A DNA stretch of 64,000 nucleotides from a virus. Each line of letters begins with the position of its first letter. The stretch's first letter is position 1. The stretch spans positions 10,704 to 74,703 of IMG/VR virus record IMGVR_UViG_3300019776_000252; one strand, given 5' to 3'. Positions 1 to 64,000 of the stretch are shown here, in pieces. Both the position numbers and the translations under genes were made by a program. Below the pieces are notes generated by a model. It was not told the DNA's origin and searched no databases. It saw only the letters and a list, made by a program, of their open reading frames with translations.

Positions 1-380
1 ACCAATGCCTTACGAGTAGTACAGGCATAAGCAGCACCATGAAGCTTCCCACGAAGTTCTCTATGCTTTTTATGTTGTTCTTCTTGTTTGGAAACCAAAT
101 CCAAAACTATTGCTCGTGCTTTAGGTGTAAGACTGAGCTTTTCATAAGGAATCATTGGAACGTTTATAGAACTTACTCCATTGATCTCAAATGATGTGTA
201 GCCCCTATTAATGTACCGAGAAGTCTTAGGATTCTTATAGACCTCTTTAACAGTCTCTGGAAGACTATTAACAATGTCTTCATGAATAAGTGTAGTGATC
301 TTAGTATGGTAATCAACACTGGGTACATCTGCCATAGCAGCATTTACAAAAGCATCACGAATAAAGTTAGTCAAACGCAT
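1..380 (-). CDS. Phage protein, possibly Nmad5-like (nucleotide-modification-associated); 3' end runs off the window
   Basis: Hand-translated, not in ORF track: MRLTNFIRDAFVNAAMADVPSVDY..., open to the window edge, AAGGA RBS upstream. Family call from recollection of the N-terminus only. Confidence 0.5.
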   Translation of the reverse strand, partial: MRLTNFIRDAFVNAAMADVPSVDYHTKITTLIHEDIVNSLPETVKEVYKNPKTSRYINRGYTSFEINGVSSINVPMIPYEKLSLTPKARAIVLDLVSKQEEQHKKHRELRGKLHGAAYACTTRKAL

Positions 381-390
381 ATATTTCCTT

Positions 391-1404
391 TTAAATCAAT
401 TCCATTGCAGCTTTACTGATCCACTCTTGCATACTCGGATGAGCAGCTAGTGGTTTATTCCTACGAACAATAGCTCGGTTAGTTACTACCTGAAACTCTA
501 CTGGCATACGGTTAATGAACACCATAAGAGCTTTCAGGTTCTCTTTAGTTGCATGTTCTGCAATAGAACCTGTAATAGCCCACAGAATGCTAGGTTCAGT
601 AGGCATTACTGCTTTCTCAGGATTGTTTTCAATCTGAGGAACAGTAATAAGGTTCTTGTAGATCTTTGTATAAGTCAAGAACTCCCTTGCTACACCTTCT
701 CCTAGCGTTCCAGCCAACAGAGGAAGAGTATCAGGATCGTCAAGCTCAGAATGCTCAAGAATATCATTGGCAAATTCCCATGTACGCAGACAAGCATAGG
801 TCTTATCTGTGTGATCTGGCTTAAAGGTATATAGATTGCCTGGTTTAAAGTTCAAATGGCTAGTAATCATATGATTAATGCCATTCTCATTAGCCCAGTC
901 CATCCATTCCTTCAGATCAGGCATTGTTTCAATATGAATAAGCCGTGATTGAAGTGCTGTACTCATTTCATTGGTGATAGCACCATCTGAATCCTTATTA
1001 CCAGCACAAACAATAGCTACATTCTTATGAAGATGGTTCTGACCTACCATCTTGTCCAAGACTATCTTGTAAGCAGCAGCTTGAACTGCAGTAGAAGCAG
1101 CATTGAACTCATCCAAGAACAATAACCAACCTGAATAGCCTTCAGGAATCTCATCTCCCTCAATAGGAAAGGTATCCATAGGCAAATAACTTGCTCTAGT
1201 ACCTTTAATGTTGGGGAATCCATTCAGATCTGTTGGATCACACTGGCTTAAGCGTAAATCAATAACCTTAAGGTTAAATTGTTTAGCAATAGCGTGAACA
1301 GCCTGAGATTTACCACAGCCAGGACTACCAATAAGCATAGGCACTTTACGTGCCTTAATACATTTGATGATCATGGATGTAGCTTGTTTAAGCTTAACTT
1401 GCAT
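391..1404 (-). CDS. MoxR-like AAA+ ATPase (N4 gp24-like)
   Basis: Walker A GSPGCGKS, Walker B LFLDE, arginine finger ALQSRL; position downstream of RNAP II. Confidence 0.85.
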   Translation of the reverse strand: MQVKLKQATSMIIKCIKARKVPMLIGSPGCGKSQAVHAIAKQFNLKVIDLRLSQCDPTDLNGFPNIKGTRASYLPMDTFPIEGDEIPEGYSGWLLFLDEFNAASTAVQAAAYKIVLDKMVGQNHLHKNVAIVCAGNKDSDGAITNEMSTALQSRLIHIETMPDLKEWMDWANENGINHMITSHLNFKPGNLYTFKPDHTDKTYACLRTWEFANDILEHSELDDPDTLPLLAGTLGEGVAREFLTYTKIYKNLITVPQIENNPEKAVMPTEPSILWAITGSIAEHATKENLKALMVFINRMPVEFQVVTNRAIVRRNKPLAAHPSMQEWISKAAMELI

Positions 1405-1612
1405 ACTTTTCCTCGTTGATGATCAACGGATCATCTATGTGTTGGTGATACCAGATAGCAGATTCAAGAGTCCTAAAGTGGACTGTATGACTGTCTTTAT
1501 AGCTTGCAATCCAAGGCTGGACTACACATTTATCTGGACGATAGGTAACTCTTCGTTCTCCACTCTCGCTCTTGAATGTTCTAGCGAGGTAGTATTCCTT
1601 GATTTTGCTCAT
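1394..1612 (-). CDS. Hypothetical protein
   Basis: 72-aa ORF tightly packed in the minus-strand operon. Confidence 0.55.
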   Translation of the reverse strand: MSKIKEYYLARTFKSESGERRVTYRPDKCVVQPWIASYKDSHTVHFRTLESAIWYHQHIDDPLIINEEKYAS

Positions 1613-1787
1613 GGTTTACCTTAAGCAATGTATTGTGATAGGTCATTAGTAATACAAACATCATGTTCTTACTTGCTACTGGCAAGGTTGAATCAGCATA
1701 TTCAATTACCTCATTCAAACTGTTCATTGTGGGGAACAAGTTCATAGGAACCGCACGGATGTGCGGCTTTAGGCTTGTGACTGTCAT
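1581..1787 (-). CDS. Hypothetical protein
   Basis: 68-aa ORF, ATGA overlap with the upstream gene. Confidence 0.6.
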   Translation of the reverse strand: MTVTSLKPHIRAVPMNLFPTMNSLNEVIEYADSTLPVASKNMMFVLLMTYHNTLLKVNHEQNQGILPR

Positions 1788-1987
1788 TGACTATCTCGCG
1801 CTTTCATCATTGCATCAGCCATTCCATAAGCTGTGTTACAGACTCTTTTTTCGTCTTTATATTCATAGGGATTAGCCAGCAATCCTTGCATTGCTTTAGC
1901 AGCAAAGTAATCTCGTAGATCCATACCAGCCCAATCTCCTTCAGTCATTGGAAATGCTGGTATGTATGGTCGTTGTACTGTTGTCAT
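1784..1987 (-). CDS. Small phage protein with GMxLRDYFAAKAMQG motif
   Basis: Common phage motif PAFP...GMDLRDYFAAKAMQG...AYxxADAM. Confidence 0.75.
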   Translation of the reverse strand: MTTVQRPYIPAFPMTEGDWAGMDLRDYFAAKAMQGLLANPYEYKDEKRVCNTAYGMADAMMKARDSQ

Positions 1988-2045
1988 ATTTAGTTCCTGT
2001 CTATCTATAGGCTGTCTATCGTATAAAAATCACTTTTTGTGAAAG

Positions 2046-2696
2046 TTAGTATCCCGCTTTTAATAGAAGTAGCTTGTCGGTAAAGTACTCAAGATATTTA
2101 CGTACTGCTTCTTTTACTAGCTGGTCTGGTTCTGCTCTAATTACTTTATTAGCAGCAATTCGTTTTGCATTGATGTAAGCATCAATGGCTTCAGGTACTG
2201 TGTTGTATGAACCAACCCAAGTTCTTTTGGCATTACCATAGCTGATGCCTACTTCATACTTGCCTTTACGGGCATAGATACCTACAGGAAGATTGCCTCT
2301 GTCATTAGCACGCTCATTGAAGAGAGAGTTCACTTGTCTAGATACAAAAAGACATGTATTTGGTGAATAGACTTTCTTATCTAATGAGAGTAAATCTTTA
2401 TCCAGTTGCTTATCCTTCCAATCTTTAGATAGCATCCATTGTTTGAATGCCATAAAGGAATGCCATTCGGGATCAACAGTGCAACCAACATATGTTGGAT
2501 TTTTCTTTAACCATTGGGGAGAATAGCAACGAGTGAACATATGCTTCCAACGCATAAAGTATGGGCAGTAATAAATCTTATTATTAACTCGTAGTGTGGT
2601 TTGATAAGGTGCATCGTTTATTCCAACTCGCCATACCAAACTACGTTTCATTCCACGCTTATCTGTCTTACTATCTAATGATATTTCTTTGAACAT
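2046..2696 (-). CDS. HNH-type homing endonuclease with AP2-like C-terminus
   Basis: WxxMxxRCY...V.PEW.SF..F..W...LDKD...YSP.TC..V...N pattern; start moved from the track's TTG to ATG 2696 after AAGG. Confidence 0.75.
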   Translation of the reverse strand: MFKEISLDSKTDKRGMKRSLVWRVGINDAPYQTTLRVNNKIYYCPYFMRWKHMFTRCYSPQWLKKNPTYVGCTVDPEWHSFMAFKQWMLSKDWKDKQLDKDLLSLDKKVYSPNTCLFVSRQVNSLFNERANDRGNLPVGIYARKGKYEVGISYGNAKRTWVGSYNTVPEAIDAYINAKRIAANKVIRAEPDQLVKEAVRKYLEYFTDKLLLLKAGY

Positions 2697-2771
2697 ATAC
2701 GCCTTATTAAGTGAGATATTCAAACTATATCAAATATCGGTGTTATCGGTTGAGAACTTTTTAGAAGTTCT

Positions 2772-2810
2772 AAAAAAATAAGGATCTATCCTTTCGGATA
2801 GACCCTTTTT
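2772..2810. terminator. Intrinsic terminator downstream of RNAP2, probably bidirectional
   Basis: Stem TCTATCC/GGATAGA, GAAA loop on minus strand, A-run on left and T-run on right. Confidence 0.7.
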
Positions 2811-2839
2811 CCAACTCACCAAGGCGCAGAATGCGCCTA

Positions 2840-4078
2840 TTAGGACAATGCGTAATTAGACTTCCTAATAAGTTCTCCTAGATTACTAGACAACTTCTTA
2901 TACTTCAAAGGAGTTCTATACAACTGACCTAACAAGTCATCAACCAAGTCACTTTCAGCTATCTCAGCCAATACATTAATGTATGTCTGACGTAGTACAT
3001 TCATATTGTTAGCGTGACACTTGAACTCATCATGAACAGTTACAACCTCGAATGGCTTATAACTAAGCATGTATTCAACCATCTCTGCTAACTTCTTGAG
3101 ATGTACTACATTGATATATCCCATGCTTTCTACTTCCAAATGAGGAAGTATTACAGCATCGGCTATACCGCTACGTTCATACTGCTTTACATAGTATTGA
3201 ACCTCTTGGCTTACACCCAGAGTAGCTGTTTCCTCACCCATAGAACGCTTAATCAGTTCAATCTCAATCAGATTAGCTGCTCTTTGAACCATCTCACGGT
3301 CATAGTTACATCTCCGATGAATAGTTCTCAGAACATATGCATCTACTGAGTGAACCACATTAGCCACATTAGAGAGACCCTTAGCTGTACCTTCATTCTC
3401 ATAGAACTCATAGGTAAAGCTAGAGTGTCCAAGCTCATCAACCTCAATACGAGCTTCCTTCTTGGTCATAACCTTAACCCTAGCGTCAAATCCATCTGGA
3501 AGCTTCCATTCATGTACCAATGCAAAGGCATTCCAGCTATTCAACAAGTCCTGTAGCAGTTCCCAAGCACCTGGAGCAACCCTAATTGCAGCCTCATAGA
3601 AGGCATTCAACTCAGGCGTATCCTCACCAAATATCTCCTTTGGCTTGGCTTTAGAACCATAGAAACTAGTCATCAGAGCCTCCTTAGCCTGCTGCCTAGA
3701 CACTCCAACAGTACTTCCAAGGATGTTTTGCATCTCGTTAGTAACTGCTGAATAGGCATCTGCACGCTTATTAGGATCTACTAGACCAGTAGCAGTAGCT
3801 CCAGCTACACAGCCTGTAAGAACAGACATAAGCTGGATACCACTACAGCAAGCATCAAAGCCTACCAAGTGACCTGTAGGCTTACCTTGTTGAGCTTTCC
3901 TCAGAGCCATTACAGCCTTCTGATACAGAGGCTTGTTATCTGCATCAACTTCAAGGCTCTCAAGCTTATCCATATTGGTTTTAACCCACTGGATACGATC
4001 CTCAAATAGCAGCTTATCTAGGCCAAATTGATTGGCAATATCAATCAATAAATACTCGTAACCAGTAAATGTTTTCAT
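2840..4078 (-). CDS. RNA polymerase II subunit 2 (N4 gp16-like, RNAP2)
   Basis: T7-type motifs A (GFDACCSGIQ), B (RQQAKEALMTSFYG), C (VHDEF), plus VVHSVDA. Confidence 0.95.
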   Translation of the reverse strand: MKTFTGYEYLLIDIANQFGLDKLLFEDRIQWVKTNMDKLESLEVDADNKPLYQKAVMALRKAQQGKPTGHLVGFDACCSGIQLMSVLTGCVAGATATGLVDPNKRADAYSAVTNEMQNILGSTVGVSRQQAKEALMTSFYGSKAKPKEIFGEDTPELNAFYEAAIRVAPGAWELLQDLLNSWNAFALVHEWKLPDGFDARVKVMTKKEARIEVDELGHSSFTYEFYENEGTAKGLSNVANVVHSVDAYVLRTIHRRCNYDREMVQRAANLIEIELIKRSMGEETATLGVSQEVQYYVKQYERSGIADAVILPHLEVESMGYINVVHLKKLAEMVEYMLSYKPFEVVTVHDEFKCHANNMNVLRQTYINVLAEIAESDLVDDLLGQLYRTPLKYKKLSSNLGELIRKSNYALS

Positions 4079-4086
4079 AAAACCTC

Positions 4087-4320
4087 CTATTTATGTAATA
4101 ACAGCTTAATATTTAACTCTTTAGGTATTTTTATATACATTGGTTTCCACCAACGCATTCCACCATCAACATCCAGATCTACTATCCACCACTTAGTTAC
4201 ATTGTGATGAAACTCAGCAGCAGGGTTATATAACCAAGTACCTTCAGGATATGAATTAGAAGCTGGAACTTGGTCATACTTATTAACCTCACCATCTGGT
4301 TTAAATACTATGTATTTCAT
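4087..4320 (-). CDS. Hypothetical protein between the RNAP II subunits
   Basis: 77-aa ORF with AAGGA RBS, coupled to neighbours. Confidence 0.6.
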   Translation of the reverse strand: MKYIVFKPDGEVNKYDQVPASNSYPEGTWLYNPAAEFHHNVTKWWIVDLDVDGGMRWWKPMYIKIPKELNIKLLLHK

Positions 4321-4475
4321 GATTTATCCTTGAGTTGATTAACTCCCATTGCCTTTAAATACTCTTCCCTAGTTTTTAACTCTGGATATCCACATTTAGG
4401 GCAAGCAGGAACATATCTACCGTAGAACTCATAAGACCAGAAGCATTTACCGCAGACATTACTATTGAAGCTCAT
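4317..4475 (-). CDS. 52-aa zinc-ribbon protein (not in ORF track)
   Basis: MSFNSNVCGKCFWSYEFYGRYVPACPKCGYPELK...; CxxC and CPxCG; ATGA overlaps at both ends. Confidence 0.7.
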   Translation of the reverse strand: MSFNSNVCGKCFWSYEFYGRYVPACPKCGYPELKTREEYLKAMGVNQLKDKS

Positions 4476-5371
4476 GGCATACCCTCAATTAATTCCTCAT
4501 TGGCTAATTCCACCATTGCTTTCTTAAATGGAGCACCTTGAGTATTAACGTGATAACCCTGAGAGTAAATTCTTCCTCTCTTATCTACCTTATGGGTCAG
4601 ATAGAACCTATTATTCTGTTGAGCTAACAAGGTATAAACCTTATAAGACTGCTTCTTAAAAGCATTCCATTGCTCAACTTTCTCTTGAGTATCTAACTCA
4701 AATGTAGGTTCTTCTTCGTAAGTACTCAGATAAGCTGTATCCAGCTTAAGAGCTACTTTATTCATAGTATTAAGAACATCAAGACACAGATCACCACCAT
4801 GATGATTACCTGTACCAAGCATCACACTGTCATTAAAGGACAGATATCCGCTTGAATAGTTATTCTCTAGATCCAATGGTTCACACACCATAGGAGGTAA
4901 ATAACCACTATTCTCAATCCTAAATACTAATGAATCAGGGAATGGCATTCTGCTAATTACCATTAACGATGCCATCTTATTAGCCTTAATAATGTCAAAT
5001 ACATCTGTATTACAGAGTATCGCCATTAACTCAGCCACAGTTTTAATACTATCTGCACGATCTGAGAATCCCAATCTACCAGCCATTTGAGCAGTAACAG
5101 AGGTAAATAACTCTTCCTTGGTGCAATAACTAGCACCAATAAAGATACCTAATACTACCTCTTGAATATCTAGTGTCTTAAGCTGATCTATTCTCTTGGC
5201 TTTACTGTCATAGTAACTACCACTTAGATAATCTTGAACAAGGCTAATACCTTGCTCAATCTTCTCCTGATAGTTATCAATAATGAACTGCTTGATATCT
5301 CTATCAATCAACTTCCTACTAAAGTTCTGTTCATTTGTTTCTTGCCAGATAATGTCTCTCATGGTTTCCAT
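4472..5371 (-). CDS. RNA polymerase II subunit 1 (N4 gp15-like, RNAP1)
   Basis: LPPMVCEP and DKRGRIY (DxRGRxY) motifs; synteny with RNAP2. Confidence 0.93.
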   Translation of the reverse strand: METMRDIIWQETNEQNFSRKLIDRDIKQFIIDNYQEKIEQGISLVQDYLSGSYYDSKAKRIDQLKTLDIQEVVLGIFIGASYCTKEELFTSVTAQMAGRLGFSDRADSIKTVAELMAILCNTDVFDIIKANKMASLMVISRMPFPDSLVFRIENSGYLPPMVCEPLDLENNYSSGYLSFNDSVMLGTGNHHGGDLCLDVLNTMNKVALKLDTAYLSTYEEEPTFELDTQEKVEQWNAFKKQSYKVYTLLAQQNNRFYLTHKVDKRGRIYSQGYHVNTQGAPFKKAMVELANEELIEGMP

Positions 5372-5373
5372 GA

Positions 5374-5739
5374 TTACTCCTTAATAACAACAAATACAGT
5401 CTTACCCTGTTTCTTCATGTAATTAATCATGTGCTCAGTGCCTTTGGATTTACCATCCCAAAAGGCAATAAGTCCATCTGCGAAGTCACCCATTTCTTGG
5501 TTTCTTACATATCCAGCACGTTTACCGTACTTAGCCCAATTAGCAGGGAACTCATGTACCTGAATACCGTGCTTATGAGCAAACATATAGCCAAGTGCAT
5601 CTGCACCTCTAGCCATTCCACTAACAATAGATACTGTCTTATCAGCCAATTCAGTATCATGAATGGCATAGATAGCTCGTACCATCAAGTCATAGTCATC
5701 GAAGTCTCTACTACCAGCAATAATCAATTTGTAGTCCAT
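5374..5739 (-). CDS. SLOG-family (YspA/DUF2493-like) protein
   Basis: IIAGSRDF, IVSGMARGAD, AGYVRN..M, FWDGKSKGT..MI. Confidence 0.85.
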   Translation of the reverse strand: MDYKLIIAGSRDFDDYDLMVRAIYAIHDTELADKTVSIVSGMARGADALGYMFAHKHGIQVHEFPANWAKYGKRAGYVRNQEMGDFADGLIAFWDGKSKGTEHMINYMKKQGKTVFVVIKE

Positions 5740-5770
5740 ATCAATTCCTTTGTCTGTCTATTAGCCACAT

Positions 5771-5790
5771 TACTGTACTTATATACAGTA
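5771..5790. promoter_or_regulatory. LexA operator (SOS box)
   Basis: TACTGTACTTATATACAGTA = CTGT-N8-ACAG, 18/20 match to TACTGTATATATATACAGTA; lies in the leader of the SLOG-RNAP1-RNAP2 operon. Confidence 0.75.
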
Positions 5791-5793
5791 AAC

Positions 5794-5813
5794 CCATAGC
5801 AACCACGAAGTGG
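5794..5813 (-). promoter_or_regulatory. vRNAP hairpin promoter P4 (SLOG-RNAP II operon)
   Basis: Template strand CCATAGCAA-CCAC-GAA-GTGG with C(GAA)G triloop as in N4 early promoters. Confidence 0.85.
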
Positions 5814-5826
5814 CAAGACACGAAAG

Positions 5827-5853
5827 AAAAAACATAACTTCCCCGAAGGGAAG
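5827..5853 (-). terminator. Intrinsic terminator after the 21-aa ORF
   Basis: Minus strand CTTCCC-TTCG-GGGAAG followed by TTATGTTTTTT. Confidence 0.8.
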
Positions 5854-5860
5854 CCATATT

Positions 5861-5926
5861 TCAGTCGAAGTACACATCGAGTTCCATATCGAAGTACTCA
5901 AACTCATCGTCAATAAACAGGAACAT
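5861..5926 (-). CDS. 21-aa acidic/aromatic early micropeptide
   Basis: MFLFIDDEFEYFDMELDVYFD; GGAG RBS; only ORF between promoter P3 and a terminator. Confidence 0.7.
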   Translation of the reverse strand: MFLFIDDEFEYFDMELDVYFD

Positions 5927-5952
5927 AGGAGTCTCCAAGTAAGGCAGGATTG

Positions 5953-5972
5953 CCATTACAACTGCGAAGCAG
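5953..5972 (-). promoter_or_regulatory. vRNAP hairpin promoter P3
   Basis: CCATTACAA-CTGC-GAA-GCAG. Confidence 0.85.
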
Positions 5973-5984
5973 GATGTAGGAGAT

Positions 5985-6021
5985 AAAAAAAGATACTAGT
6001 AAACCCGAAGGTCTACTAGTA
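5985..6021 (-). terminator. Intrinsic terminator after the Drc-like gene
   Basis: Minus strand TACTAGTAGACC-TTCG-GGTTTACTAGTA followed by TCTTTTTTT. Confidence 0.8.
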
Positions 6022-6029
6022 GTGCTGGA

Positions 6030-6302
6030 TTAGTCCAGCTTAAAGCCCACTTGGGACTTCTCATCTGCCAAGCGGAAATCAGCAGTCAATGCTGCCAATA
6101 CCTTTTGGACACGAGTGGGATCAGCTTTGAGCCAATCAATCAATCCCTTCTCTGCGACATTAGTGTCACGCAAGGGAATTGCACCGAATTTCTTCGGCTT
6201 ACCTGTAACGCTGTCAGGCAGATACAAGTTCATGAAAGCAGATGCTTTCCAGTTAGCATTTTGTTGAGCAGATGCTTGATTGTTTTCGATTTGAAAGGCC
6301 AT
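6030..6302 (-). CDS. ssDNA-binding RNAP II cofactor (N4 gp2 / Drc-like)
   Basis: WKASAFMNLYLP...GKPKKFGAIPL motif, 90 aa; start moved to ATG 6302 after GGAG and downstream of P2. Confidence 0.8.
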   Translation of the reverse strand: MAFQIENNQASAQQNANWKASAFMNLYLPDSVTGKPKKFGAIPLRDTNVAEKGLIDWLKADPTRVQKVLAALTADFRLADEKSQVGFKLD

Positions 6303-6349
6303 TTGAGTACTCCAATATAGATGTTGAGATGAACATACGATATGTATGT

Positions 6350-6369
6350 CCATAACAACCGCGAAGCGG
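6350..6369 (-). promoter_or_regulatory. vRNAP hairpin promoter P2
   Basis: CCATAACAA-CCGC-GAA-GCGG. Confidence 0.88.
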
Positions 6370-6576
6370 AATATAGGAGAGCGATAGAGTATCGGGAATA
6401 TATCGGTATTGGAGAGAGATATAGATGGTATATGGTTGGAGTTATAAAGTGAGTGAATACTATATGCTGAGTCGTATAGTCCTACTCTCACCAATAACCT
6501 GAGAGTTAAATCTTTCTACTTAATAAACTGACTATCTCAGTGTGTAGTTGTGTGTAATGGTATTAAGTGTGTAGTT

Positions 6577-6612
6577 AAAAAAAATAGGCTACTACTCCGT
6601 AGAGTAGTAACC
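6577..6612 (-). terminator. Intrinsic terminator after the first early gene
   Basis: Minus strand TACTACTC-TACG-GAGTAGTA followed by a T9 run. Confidence 0.8.
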
Positions 6613-6619
6613 AGTGATG

Positions 6620-6811
6620 TTAGATCTTGATACCAGATGCTTCTTCTAATGCTTTCTTCTTGCTTAGACGCTCTGCTCGTGCTTCCTCTGCGAATGATGC
6701 TGCTGTTTCTTCAGACCATTCTGCAAGGTGATTAAGAGCTTGTGCTGCTTTATTAGTAGCTCCGAAGATAGTAGCTAGTGCATCCCAGAGAGCTTGTAGT
6801 GCTTTACCCAT
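6620..6811 (-). CDS. First early protein, 63 aa, helical, function unknown
   Basis: GAGG RBS; bracketed by P1 and a terminator. Confidence 0.8.
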   Translation of the reverse strand: MGKALQALWDALATIFGATNKAAQALNHLAEWSEETAASFAEEARAERLSKKKALEEASGIKI

Positions 6812-6845
6812 GATAAACCTCGTATATATACAGTTCGACAGTGAA

Positions 6846-6865
6846 CCATAACAACCACGGAGTGG
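6846..6865 (-). promoter_or_regulatory. vRNAP hairpin promoter P1
   Basis: CCATAACAA-CCAC-GGA-GTGG. Confidence 0.85.
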
Positions 6866-7080
6866 GTATGTAGATAAGAATTCTTATAGATTTAGACCCA
6901 GGGGGGGTGATTGATATTTTGGAAGTCCAAACTGTAAGTACTACATCAGTACCCATTTTATTTTTTCTATAAAAACCTGTGCCTATTTTTTAAGCAAAAT
7001 ATTCTCTATATTAATGATCACTTTTATCATCTAATAGATCATGCTACTATATAAGCCCGATAACCTAACTAAGGACTTAT
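6866..7080. other. Divergent non-coding junction, probable terminal-repeat / genome-end region with late promoter
   Basis: AT-rich and ORF-free, G7 run at 6901, TG-C-TACTAT extended -10 near 7042-7050; early and packaging genes diverge here as in a circularised N4 map. Confidence 0.6.
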
Positions 7081-7386
7081 ATGAAGACACTCCACAATAG
7101 CGATGTATCTGGTGCTAGGGTTAATGTCCCTGATATCAAGGTAGTTGGTAATGGGGATACCTTTCAGCTTATCTGTAAAGCATCCTCTGCTAATGAAGGT
7201 TGGATGAAGAGTACTAAGGCTATGAATATCCCTGGCTTTGGTTGCTTGGTTCAGGTTACTACTCAGCAAAGGAATCCAGATGGTAGTTATGCAGTGGCAG
7301 AAGCACTAACTACTGTAGAGGGTGCTCATGCTGTTGAAGATAAGGTTAATGGTGGTCGTAAGATCGTTGCATGGGGATTGACATGA
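7081..7386 (+). CDS. Hypothetical phage protein
   Basis: AAGGA RBS, 101 aa, first gene of the late strand. Confidence 0.7.
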   Translation: MKTLHNSDVSGARVNVPDIKVVGNGDTFQLICKASSANEGWMKSTKAMNIPGFGCLVQVTTQQRNPDGSYAVAEALTTVEGAHAVEDKVNGGRKIVAWGLT

Positions 7387-14791: not shown

Positions 14792-16966
14792 ATGACTGAA
14801 GCTGACCAAGATCTATCGGAAGATAACACACCACTGGTTTCGTGGAAGAATCCTCCGACTATTCGAGAACTTAAGCAAGATTTGCTTGAGGCTCAACCTA
14901 TCAAGGATGCTCAGGTTAGTCAGATTGATACTTGGCTTGACAACCTTAATGTCACCAATGGAGCAAAAGTTGATACTCCAAAGGGTAACTCTAAGATTGT
15001 TCCTCGGCTTATCCGTAAACAAGCAGAGTGGCGATACGCAGCATTGTCAGAACCATTCCTGAGTACAGATGACGTATTCAATGTACGTCCTATTACTTGG
15101 GAAGATCGTAAAGCTGCTCAACAGAACCAGTTGGTTCTGAACCATCAGTTCAATACTCAGATTGACAAGACGGAATTCATTGATGAGTACGTTCGTACTG
15201 CTGTAGATGAGGGTACTGTTATTGTTAGAGTGGGTTGGGAATTCCATGAAGAACAGTACGAAGGTACGTTTCCTCAAGTGGAATATAGGGTAAACCCTGA
15301 TGTGGTTCCTGTGATTCAGCAACTGGATCAGTTGAAGAAAGAATCTCCAAGCCAGTTTGATACAGACGTTCCTGAAGAGCTTAAGCAAGCTTATGAACTC
15401 AGTATGGAACAAGGACAGCCTATTGAGGCTGTTGTTGTGGGTCAAGTTAAGGAAACTCGTACCCGTACAGTGAAGAATGCTCCTACGGTGGAGATCTGTA
15501 ACTATCGGAATGTCACTATTGATCCCACTTGTAAGGGTGATATTGATAAGGCTGGCTTCCTGATTTACAGCTTTGAGTCTTCTATTTCCAAGTTGAAGAA
15601 AGACGGGAAATACAAGAATCTGAATAAGATTAATCTGGATGGAAACTCTATCCTTGGTCAACCAGACCATACTCCAGAACGTAATACCAACTCATTTAAC
15701 TTCAGTGATAAGTCACGTAAGAAGTTCATTGTTCATGAATACTGGGGTTACTGGGATATTGATGGTTCTGGTATTGTTAAACCATTTGTAGCTGCTTGGG
15801 TTGGTGAAACTCTGATCCGTTTGGAAGAGAATCCTTTCCCAGATAAGAAGATTCCCTTCGTTATTGCACAGTATTTGCCTGTTCGCCGTAGTATTTATGG
15901 TGAACCTGATGGTGCTTTGCTGGAAGATAACCAGAAGATCATTGGTGCTGTTACCCGTGGAATGATTGACATTATGGGTAAGTCTGCCAATGGTCAGACA
16001 GGTGTTCGTAAGGATATGTTGGATACCACTAATCGGAGAAAATTCGATAAGGGTATGGATTATGAGTTCAATGCAAATGTTGATCCACGTCAAGGAATAC
16101 ATATGCATACATATCCAGAGATTCCTCAGTCTGCTCAGTTCATGCTTCAGATGCAGAACATGGAAGCTGAGTCACTTACTGGTGTTAAGTCCTTTAGTCA
16201 GGGTGTTTCTGGCAATAGCCTGGGAGATGTAGCTGCTGGAGTACGTGGAGCACTGGATGCAGCTTCCAAGCGTGAATTGGGTATTCTCCGTAGGCTTAGT
16301 GCTGGAATTATTAAGATTGGACGCAAGATTGTCAGTATGAATGCTGAATTTCTCTCTGATAAAGAGGTTATTCGCATTACAAATGACCAGTTTGTAACCA
16401 TCCGTAAGGATGATTTGGCTGGCAATTTCGACCTTAAATTGTCTATTTCTACTGCAGAAGAAGACAATAACAAGGCTCAGGAACTGGCTTTTATGCTTCA
16501 GACTATGGGTAATAACATGGACCCAGAATTGTCTAAGATGATTCTGTCTGATATTGCCAAGCTTCGTAAGATGCCTGATATGGCTAAGAAGATTGAAGCT
16601 TATCAGCCACAACCCAATCCAATACTCCAAGAGAAAGCTCAGTTGGAGAATGAACTACTTAAAGCTCAGATTGCCAAAGAGAATGCTCAAGCTCAACTGG
16701 CTTTGAGTTCTGTTGGAGTGCATCAGAGTAAAGCACTTACTGAACAAGCTAAGGCTGCACATATTAAGAGTGATACTGACCTGAAGAATCTAGACTTTAT
16801 TGAACAAGAGTCTGGTGTTAAACAGGAACGTGACCTACAAAAGGTTGGTGAACAAGCTAGAAGCCAAGCTGAGTTAAAGAAGCTGGATTTACATATGCAA
16901 GATAAAGAACATATGCATGATTTCACTATGGCTCATTTGCAAAATCAACAAAATAATAAACAATAA
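14792..16966 (+). CDS. Portal protein (N4 gp59-like)
   Basis: PRLIRKQAEWRYAALSEPFL motif, size, synteny. Confidence 0.93.
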   Translation: MTEADQDLSEDNTPLVSWKNPPTIRELKQDLLEAQPIKDAQVSQIDTWLDNLNVTNGAKVDTPKGNSKIVPRLIRKQAEWRYAALSEPFLSTDDVFNVRPITWEDRKAAQQNQLVLNHQFNTQIDKTEFIDEYVRTAVDEGTVIVRVGWEFHEEQYEGTFPQVEYRVNPDVVPVIQQLDQLKKESPSQFDTDVPEELKQAYELSMEQGQPIEAVVVGQVKETRTRTVKNAPTVEICNYRNVTIDPTCKGDIDKAGFLIYSFESSISKLKKDGKYKNLNKINLDGNSILGQPDHTPERNTNSFNFSDKSRKKFIVHEYWGYWDIDGSGIVKPFVAAWVGETLIRLEENPFPDKKIPFVIAQYLPVRRSIYGEPDGALLEDNQKIIGAVTRGMIDIMGKSANGQTGVRKDMLDTTNRRKFDKGMDYEFNANVDPRQGIHMHTYPEIPQSAQFMLQMQNMEAESLTGVKSFSQGVSGNSLGDVAAGVRGALDAASKRELGILRRLSAGIIKIGRKIVSMNAEFLSDKEVIRITNDQFVTIRKDDLAGNFDLKLSISTAEEDNNKAQELAFMLQTMGNNMDPELSKMILSDIAKLRKMPDMAKKIEAYQPQPNPILQEKAQLENELLKAQIAKENAQAQLALSSVGVHQSKALTEQAKAAHIKSDTDLKNLDFIEQESGVKQERDLQKVGEQARSQAELKKLDLHMQDKEHMHDFTMAHLQNQQNNKQ

Positions 16967-61988: not shown

Positions 61989-62026
61989 TCGTAATCACCA
62001 TTCGTACTTTATTCGGGGAGCATTCG
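61987..62026. repeat. Four ATTCG direct repeats, candidate integrase arm sites
   Basis: ATTCG at 61987, 62000, 62011, 62022 (spacing 13, 11, 11). Confidence 0.7.
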
Positions 62027-62031
62027 GAAAC

Positions 62032-62054
62032 AAAAAGACCTCCATTGGGAGGTC
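62032..62054 (-). terminator. Terminator downstream of the attP tRNA fragment
   Basis: Minus strand GACCTCC-CAAT-GGAGGTC then TTTTT. Confidence 0.8.
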
Positions 62055-62097
62055 GTGTAGTGTATCCGTAGCATCTTTCCAATGAAAGTAACCTAAA

Positions 62098-62115
62098 TGG
62101 TGCCCGAGGCCGGAA
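62098..62115 (-). other. attP core: 3' end of a tRNA, probably tRNA-Leu
   Basis: Minus strand TTCCGGCCTCGGGCACCA = part of T-loop, T-stem 3' side, acceptor 3' side, discriminator A, CCA; no rest of tRNA; between xis and int. Confidence 0.85.
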
Positions 62116-62127
62116 CTTAACCTACAG

Positions 62128-63763: not shown

Positions 63764-64000
63764 ATATCCACCTTCATCGCTTCTTTGATTTTGTCTGCTT
63801 GCATATCATCAGACAGCAGATTCTTTGTCGATGGTGAATTAAAGTAGTCGAGGCAAGATTGCAGCGCCTTTCGCAACCGCTTATTCTCTACTTCCAGCTT
63901 CGCACCGGCGTCATCTAAGGTCGGGTATTCAATATCAACACCACACCCACAGTTATTGCAGGTGTATGTGATTGACCGCTGTTGGTGGTGGCATACCGGA
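63760..64000 (-). CDS. Hypothetical protein, 5' end outside the window
   Basis: Open frame ...TCNNCGCGVDIEYPTLDDAGAKLEVENKRLRKALQ... ending in an ATGA overlap. Confidence 0.5.
   Translation of the reverse strand, partial: PVCHHQQRSITYTCNNCGCGVDIEYPTLDDAGAKLEVENKRLRKALQSCLDYFNSPSTKNLLSDDMQADKIKEAMKVDI

Follow-up and report, generated by a model that had tools for sequence, protein, structure and literature searches.

A LexA-box-like palindrome downstream of the hairpin promoter of the RNA polymerase II unit in an uncultured N4-like virus with an integrase

Introduction

The DNA analyzed here, called the window, is a stretch of 64,000 nt that corresponds to positions 10704-74703 of the IMG/VR virus record IMGVR_UViG_3300019776_000252 (74,703 bp, 41.9% GC, completeness rated 100%), and the record is an uncultured N4-like (Schitoviridae-type) podovirus. 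The element in question is a 20-bp palindrome similar to the LexA (SOS) box of gamma- and beta-proteobacteria, located between a hairpin promoter, P4, and the genes of the phage RNA polymerase II (RNAP II). The view that N4-like phages are strictly lytic prevailed until 2023, when integrated members and members with an integrase were reported (PMC10654107). A first reading of the letters alone, referred to below as the sequence-only reading, proposed that host LexA acts at this palindrome as a switch between lysis and lysogeny.

Results

Early Region and P4 Unit

The early region holds exactly four perfect copies of CTYCGNNGTTGNNATGG, all on the minus strand between 5794 and 6862, and each copy is preceded by a 4-bp stem with compensatory changes among the copies (CCAC/GTGG, CCGC/GCGG, CTGC/GCAG). 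With their inverted repeat, 3-nt loop and conserved flanks, the four copies are putative promoters (P1 to P4, Table 1) of the hairpin design used by the virion RNA polymerase of N4, and relatives share this design, as does Salmonella phage FSL SP-058 (CTCAC-TTC-GTGAG-TAATGG). The arrangement resembles the N4 early promoters P1-P3, which are likewise 3-nt-loop hairpins at one genome end, with terminator-closed units and with Drc/gp2-like and RNAP II genes (PMC4496689), whereas the window differs from N4 in its 4-bp stem, in another flanking consensus, in having four promoters, one of them for RNAP II alone, and in carrying an integrase. The first three units are separated by the terminators 6612-6587, 6021-5994 and 5862-5829. 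As terminators (5862-5829 and 2807-2780) bound the P4 unit on both sides, an operator in its leader would gate exactly the RNAP II unit. The open reading frame (ORF) of the small RNAP II subunit (RNAP1, 299 aa) had no Pfam match. RNAP1-anchored scans of IMG/VR, GTDB genomes and JGI/ENA metagenomes yielded about 100 related loci, with RNAP1 identities of 65% or less except in a partial fragment at 71% (L106).

LexA-Like Palindrome in the P4 Leader

The palindrome, hereafter the box, is non-coding and lies inside the P4 unit. It starts 3 nt past the ATGG that closes the P4 promoter motif, and 31 nt separate its end from the SLOG start codon, ATG (5739). When the geometry of N4 promoters, in which the loop centre lies at -11 (PMC4496689), is applied to P4, transcription is predicted to start at A5797 and the box to occupy approximately +8 to +27. 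As RNA, the box is a 9-bp hairpin at the 5' end of the leader, with the P4 stem beginning at +4 to +7.

In sequence, the box has the form CTGT-N8-ACAG and agrees at 18 of 20 positions with the gamma/beta-proteobacterial LexA consensus. All seven outer positions of each half are intact (14/14), so that the CTGT/ACAG halves and the TA/TA flanks are kept, and the centre is AT-rich. It is the sole site of this kind in the 74,703-bp genome, the runner-up having 6 mismatches; three further CTGT-N8-ACAG words in the window (570, 23075, 39079) lie within long ORFs and have GC-rich spacers. About 5e-4 sites of at least 18/20 are expected per genome by chance, and in 200 genomes simulated with a first-order Markov model the highest score was 17, seen once, so that 18/20 was never reached. 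Even when a perfect palindrome with a 7-bp arm is taken as given, the probability of the arm TACTGTA is about 9e-5, and if the spacing and an AT-type centre are included (AT-type bases at 4 or more of its 6 positions, which by hand gives a factor of about 0.06), chance would account for the box with an estimated probability below about 1e-5 per hairpin. The sequence-only reading had described the match of 18/20, the spacing of 3 nt from the P4 motif and of about 30 nt from the first start codon, the position in the leader of a SLOG-RNAP1-RNAP2 operon and the lack of another full intergenic box. Each of these points was confirmed, with the addition that the unit also contains two small ORFs.

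The P1 leader carries an element of related form, AACTGTATATATACGAGGTT (6816-6835), in which the left LexA half site is perfect and the right half is one base longer. The sequence TTYACTGT is common to the P1 and P4 leaders and stands in register in both. The P1 element may thus represent a form of the box element that has decayed, or one from which it descends.

Same 20-mer in Other Viral Contigs

The identical 20-mer was found in seven other viral contigs. In one of them, a contig of provirus type (L045, 679-698), it stands directly ahead of a umuD-umuC operon (S24, E 3.8e-19; IMS, E 1.4e-20). In five related viral contigs of 38-45 kb (L044, 6550-6569; L046, L047, L048 and L050), it lies beside a CI-like HTH_3 gene and 47 nt upstream of a 62-aa ORF, a layout similar to that of 186/Tum. 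Both the umuDC placement and the placement beside CI-like genes are classic SOS contexts.

Integrase, Attachment Site and Repressor Search

The description of the virus as an N4-like phage with an integrase proved correct, as the window contains an intact tyrosine integrase gene (int) of phrog_1 adjoined by the 3' end of a tRNA-Leu(UAA). The int gene is located about 21 kb downstream of the RNAP II unit, in the same orientation and behind a terminator, and in the segment ahead of it (61989-62127) neither a sigma-70-like nor a hairpin promoter was found. The phage genome has no tRNA genes, and in the protein atlas the integrase was resolved only to the phylum Pseudomonadota. Temperate N4-like viruses are not new, because of the 2023 description, because PF00589 is present in 7 of 13 near-complete relatives, and because an N4-like relative with Drc-like and SLOG-like genes and 57% RNAP1 identity occurs in Xenophilus sp. 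Marseille-Q4582 (L032; NZ_CAKAKO010000006.1, 99-120 kb), where it is embedded in a 914-kb bacterial contig and is presumably an integrated prophage.

Searches of the whole genome with hidden Markov models of HTH_3, Peptidase_S24 and LexA_DNA_bind found no protein of CI, Cro or LexA type, in agreement with the sequence-only reading, which had seen no CI-like repressor in the window; about 20 small ORFs near int and in the middle block are without assigned function. The palindrome might instead be bound by another dimeric protein, either a small phage protein or a host regulator, and be LexA-like only in appearance. About 25 small ORFs of the early and middle block without assigned function could supply such a protein, and palindromes of this size are typical operators. 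Phage repressors, however, usually have several operators and the box exists in a single genome copy, its agreement with LexA extends to every outer position, and the genome has no detected HTH_3 or S24 protein. We consider binding by a protein other than LexA very improbable.

Table 1. Positions of the features of the window that are discussed in the text.
Feature	Position	Strand	Remarks
LexA (SOS) box-like palindrome	5771-5790	.	TACTGTACTTATATACAGTA on the + strand, TACTGTATATAAGTACAGTA on the coding (-) strand
P4, putative N4-type virion RNA polymerase hairpin promoter	5794-5813	-	CCAC-TTC-GTGG, then TTGCTATGG; predicted to drive SLOG, RNAP1, two small ORFs and RNAP2
SLOG (YspA/cpYpsA-related), 121 aa, first gene of the P4 unit	5374-5739	-	PF10686, E 7e-14; Shine-Dalgarno sequence AAGGA, 5746-5750
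RNAP II small subunit (RNAP1), 299 aa	4472-5371	-	Place in operon and conservation at about 100 N4-like loci
Small ORFs of 52 and 77 aa, located between RNAP1 and RNAP2	4087-4475	-	
RNAP II large subunit (RNAP2), 412 aa	2840-4078	-	RNA_pol, PF00940, E 2e-16
Strong intrinsic terminator	2780-2807	-	End of P4 unit
Intrinsic terminator	5829-5862	-	Closes P3 unit, insulates P4 from upstream transcription
P3, putative hairpin promoter	5953-5972	-	Leader hairpin GGCA-ATCC-TGCC, then 21-aa ORF (5866-5931)
P2, putative hairpin promoter	6350-6369	-	Drc (N4 gp2)-like gene, 6030-6302; leader opens with 10-bp hairpin
P1, putative hairpin promoter	6846-6865	-	Predicted to drive 63-aa ORF; leader with degenerate half box AACTGTATATATACGAGG, 6816-6835
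Portal, SU10/N4 type	14792-16966		PF23899, E 2e-154
ORF of 3396 aa	26554-36744		Size typical of N4-like virion RNA polymerases (ORF map)
Tyrosine integrase, 310 aa	61056-61988	-	PF00589; phrog_1, E 4e-45; R..HxxR..H..Y residues visible in the translation
18-nt 3' end of tRNA-Leu(UAA), candidate attP core	62098-62115	-	Followed by terminator, 62037-62054

Discussion

Proposed Role of the Box

Among the explanations considered, we regard as most likely, with a confidence slightly short of even, that the box is a genuine gamma/beta-proteobacterial LexA operator, which would be specific to this lineage, laid over a generic leader hairpin, and able to obstruct the virion polymerase. The palindromy of the site carries no weight in this preference; the weight comes from the specific letters, namely the improbable arm, more so together with the centre, and the difference from the other 103 leaders of the data set described below. 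The same 20-mer ahead of umuDC, the CTGT-type boxes at lexA genes of bacteria in which relatives occur, an integrase and an attP-like tRNA end without a recognizable repressor, and the lack of such a box in lytic isolates also speak for an operator.

A plausible model of a switch between lysis and lysogeny can be drawn from such an operator. The injected virion RNA polymerase would start at P4, at about A5797, and would be stopped at promoter escape or in early elongation by a LexA dimer sitting on the duplex DNA of positions +8 to +27. As long as the cell is undamaged, the SLOG-RNAP II unit would thereby stay repressed, and middle transcription, replication and the completion of genome entry would wait with it until self-cleavage of LexA stimulated by RecA released the P4 unit. 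The sequence of the box, its uniqueness, its position and the layout of the transcription unit are observed, whereas LexA binding, the roadblock on the phage polymerase and the effect on lysis or lysogeny are all predicted steps of the model. The wider proposal, that this is a repressor-less temperate N4-like phage in which host LexA is the only gate, so that RNAP II, the completion of entry and the lytic cascade would all depend on the SOS response, appears rather unlikely to us.

Promoter Context of the Box

Against a LexA operator stand a number of results, which concern the promoter context of the box, the leaders of relatives, the candidate hosts and the model itself, and which are weighed here in that order. 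An SOS box of the umuDC, recA or lexA type normally overlaps or abuts a host promoter, whereas the box of the window lies downstream of the predicted start of a phage hairpin promoter and has no sigma-70 promoter overlapping it. In the scan of 5600-7200 no sigma-70-like promoter was found on either strand (4.8 expected), and thus none over the box. Such sites were also depleted on both strands of window positions 1-5700 (7 found, 18.2 expected), and the depletion in the early and middle block (window 1-7200) fits transcription by phage polymerases only.

These counts bear equally on another explanation raised in the sequence-only reading, in which LexA at the box would control a weak promoter of host RNA polymerase overlapping P4, so that DNA damage would lead to host-made RNAP II and to prophage induction. 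An integrated N4-like prophage has no virion polymerase and would need a host-driven entry point, LexA boxes classically overlap the -10/+1 region, and the phage has int and an attP-like site and no repressor that could be found. By eye, a pair TTGCCA-N18-TTTACT (5816-5787) can be picked out, whose second hexamer resembles a -10 element and covers the left edge of the box. However, this hexamer lacks the A that is essential as the second base of a -10 element, the spacer is 18 nt long, and the pair stands in a block where the scans recovered fewer sigma-70-like sites than expected. The Drc-like cofactor that RNAP II needs has a hairpin promoter and a terminator of its own and, as the sequence-only reading had noticed, no box, and the integrated Xenophilus relative is likewise without a box near RNAP1. 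With no visible promoter, and no box at the gene of the Drc-like cofactor, we judge an operator of a host promoter to be improbable. The failure of the sequence-only reading to identify a clean sigma-70 pair was thus reproduced by the scan, and its suggestion of an overlapping host promoter that makes RNAP II after DNA damage found no support in the anatomy of the region.

Leader Hairpins and Conservation

A hairpin would be expected at the position of the box regardless of LexA, since a 5' leader hairpin is, by predicted folding, the rule across the phage clade. Hairpins open three of the four leaders of the window phage (10 bp after P2, 4 bp after P3 and the 9-bp box hairpin after P4), in line with the small hairpins that the sequence-only reading had noted in other early leaders and that were recovered for P2 and P3. 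Over 104 hairpin-promoter candidates from the relatives and the window, the first 36 transcribed nucleotides fold better than shuffled sequences, with a mean z of -1.46 and 64% of the leaders below -1. The box may accordingly be only a leader hairpin of the kind typical for the clade, which would, for example, protect the 5' end from decay or assist release of the nascent RNA from its template. Its likeness to a LexA box would then have no function, being either an accident of an AT-rich stem or meaningless in a host whose LexA, if any, has another specificity. The 10-bp stem of the P2 leader (z -5.6) agrees with such a role, and the extra base in the right half of the P1 element points the same way, as it would break LexA spacing while a bulged pairing could still form. 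Pairing alone, on the other hand, leaves unexplained why both arms carry an exact LexA half site and why the centre is AT-rich, none of the other 103 leaders is LexA-box-like, and the fold of the whole P4 leader is unexceptional against dinucleotide shuffles (z -0.74).

The comparison with relatives also favors a hairpin without LexA. At the homologous place, the leaders of relatives pair with other sequences or in other registers. The RNAP II leaders of four relatives (L002, L008, L009 and L053) read CTGGCGCTKTTGCCAG rather than CTGT-N8-ACAG, and those of three more (L003, L004 and L007) keep the left part of CTGGCGCTKTTGCCAG and pair in other registers; the Drc leaders of relatives keep GGCAAATCCTGCC. 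The sequence-only reading had named, as an outcome that would speak against it, homologous leaders that keep base-pairing and lose CTGT-N8-ACAG. Such leaders were found in part, in L002, L003, L004, L007, L008, L009 and L053, and they belong to distant relatives. Since these have protein identities of 65% or less and a GC content of 49-63%, they probably infect other hosts.

An SOS box would be expected to recur at orthologous positions, but the box was absent from the relatives, which except for L106 share at most 65% RNAP1 identity, in 29 viral, 6 genomic and 67 metagenomic loci as well as in 15 whole genomes, 7 of them with an integrase. A strict pattern combining this promoter type with CTGT-N8-ACAG matched no other contig of IMG/VR. 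The co-occurrence of box and integrase that the sequence-only reading had put forward as a check was not seen, as none of the 7 integrase-bearing relatives has the box. The Xenophilus prophage is a further case: its host has lexA with CTGT-type boxes, yet the 10 kb on either side of its RNAP1 gene contain no box of LexA type.

Some observations on these leaders and on other box-like sites are added here. CTGGCGCTKTTGCCAG has a CTG-N10-CAG skeleton with a GC-rich centre and is located 1 nt past the promoter TGG (L002, 2954-3000; L009, 2572-2620; L008, 2950-3000; L053, about 2666-2710). A leader hairpin GGCAA(A)TCCTGCC precedes Drc-like genes in five relatives (L002, 2550-2562; L004, 2178-2190; L007, 1510-1522; L008, 2536-2548; L009, 2170-2182). 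In the window this hairpin (5940-5952) sits after P3 and before the 21-aa ORF, which is acidic and aromatic, and the Drc-like gene is instead found behind P2, with a different hairpin of 10 bp. A looser IMG/VR pattern (promoter tail plus CTGT-N8-ACAG) gave matches only in chance or sigma-70-type contexts, and these were rejected.

Among 10 lytic N4-like isolates of gamma-proteobacterial hosts, none has a comparable intergenic box. Candidate sites from such phages were discarded: that of 24-32N/K57 lies inside an ATPase gene, and those of Pylas and FSL SP-058, half boxes rich in TGTATA, are found outside the leader, with about 150 nt between them and the early promoter that follows. The TGTATA/TATACA half boxes of the latter two phages, both lytic Humphriesvirinae, follow the first left-end terminator (Klebsiella phage Pylas, L136, 681-720; Salmonella phage FSL SP-058, L137, 488-530). 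A link between SLOG and LexA was also dropped, the SLOG gene of E. coli phage 24-32N being located inside an operon with no box upstream.

Candidate Hosts and Their LexA

Relatives were found in genomes of the gamma/beta-proteobacterial genera Xenophilus, Larsenimonas, Vreelandella and Dyella, three of these four genomes having LexA, and CTGT-N8-[CT]CAG boxes precede the lexA genes of Xenophilus and Larsenimonas. The tRNA-Leu(UAA) end at the candidate attP site was matched in 7 of 401 evenly drawn genomes, all of one GTDB class, that which holds Vreelandella, and with one mismatch, which is outside the 18-nt core; one of the seven genomes (G174) is unpublished and was used only for this count. 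As the matching genomes are 7 of 401 and range in GC content from 0.43 to 0.66, the tRNA end does not pin down a genus. Two of the genomes that share it have lexA boxes with the halves CTGT/ACAG and CTGC/ACAG. In three of the seven, whose loci have a GC content of 42-46%, near that of the phage, no LexA DNA-binding domain was found, the completeness of these genomes not being known, and the recA genes of these three low-GC genomes are without a CTG-N10-CAG box. This result fits a leader hairpin to which the LexA likeness is incidental, and the host of the phage may lack a canonical LexA. An S24 protein from one low-GC genome sharing the tRNA end (G053) is CI-like.

Mainly on account of this uncertainty about the host and of the lack of conservation, we hold it quite possible, while doubting it on balance, that the box is a clade-typical leader hairpin and nothing more.

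Effect of a Block at P4

The LexA operator that we favor raises a difficulty for its own model. The genome entry of N4 is completed only once the middle transcription machinery has been made (PMC4496689), and a tight LexA block would therefore stall infection in every healthy cell rather than simply favor integration. The sequence-only reading had supposed that a block of P4 in unstressed cells favors integration. This is now weakened, since a block of RNAP II is not obviously pro-integration when entry needs the middle machinery and int lies far downstream behind a terminator. A brake that leaks, or an arrest resembling dormancy, is more readily imagined. In addition, the literature search found no precedent for LexA repressing a virion-delivered polymerase that uses hairpin promoters, and no reported link between LexA and N4-like phages. 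We know of no LexA site reported in N4 itself.

Comparison With Known Systems

With the SOS boxes of umuDC, recA and lexA, the box of the window shares the 20-bp palindrome, matched at 18 of 20 positions, and the AT-rich centre. The nearest parallel for its proposed use is the Bacillus thuringiensis tectivirus GIL01, in which host LexA together with phage gp7 forms the repressor that keeps lysogeny (PMC4551915; PMC6182141). Both would be temperate phages without a CI-type repressor, with host LexA sites at early or lytic transcription and with DNA damage as the release signal, which for the window is a prediction. GIL01 has several boxes in a promoter of host RNA polymerase as well as a co-repressor, and its prophage is a non-integrating linear plasmid in a Gram-positive host, whereas the window has one box, at a phage polymerase promoter, and an integrase; its P1-P3 have no box, and a protein similar to gp7 was not identified.

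LexA-controlled antirepressors are known from coliphage 186 (Tum) and from Gifsy and Fels phages (PMC3121763). These modules and the window have in common that one box for host LexA couples the induction of a temperate phage to the SOS response, which for the window is again a prediction. Their boxes control a small antirepressor directed against the phage repressor, whereas the box of the window precedes the middle RNA polymerase of the phage itself, for which no repressor was found.

In the T7lac promoter, an engineered operator lies just past the start site of T7 RNA polymerase, and LacI bound there blocks the polymerase. The proposed arrangement is similar, with an operator a few bases past the start of a T7-like single-subunit polymerase acting as a roadblock. 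T7lac is engineered, whereas the window element is natural, corresponds to LexA and belongs to a hairpin promoter needing supercoiling and single-stranded DNA-binding protein.

Host LexA sites in the control regions of temperate phages are thus already known, from GIL01 and from antirepressors of the Gifsy and 186 type. What would be new here is the target, a putative hairpin promoter of an injected single-subunit polymerase that would gate the second polymerase of the N4 cascade, observed as a single site in an uncultured phage. The polymerase required by early N4-like promoters is present only in virions. If the LexA reading is true, the box would be the first concrete candidate for the control of silence and induction in temperate N4-like phages and a first molecular handle on their entry into and exit from dormancy. 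It would, moreover, be the first example in nature of a phage polymerase that is gated at a hairpin promoter by a cellular repressor, and so a natural counterpart of T7lac. Should the box prove to be a leader hairpin and nothing else, the 5' hairpins that early transcripts carry across the clade would remain as a modest finding on N4-like gene expression.

Source Genome and Its Variants

The closest isolates of the virus are N4-like phages of enterobacteria, Pseudomonas and Vibrio, with portal identities of about 55-61%. The record has an 85-bp direct terminal repeat (window 63916-64000 and genome 1-85), which we read as an assembly overlap because it lies inside a block of minus-strand genes; the physical genome ends are more likely near the divergent AT-rich gap at 6957-7080. 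The window DNA is present in aquatic and freshwater metagenomes from two studies, no RNA runs being listed among those that contain it, and read mapping recovered the sequence unchanged in a second run from the source study. A freshwater run of 2024 from a different study (X5) contains a diverged variant of the early region over window positions 5571-7016. Its pieces (99-263 nt) leave out 5743-5931 and show from a few to 17 differences per contig of about 170-260 nt, which suggests that closer relatives of this virus exist in nature.

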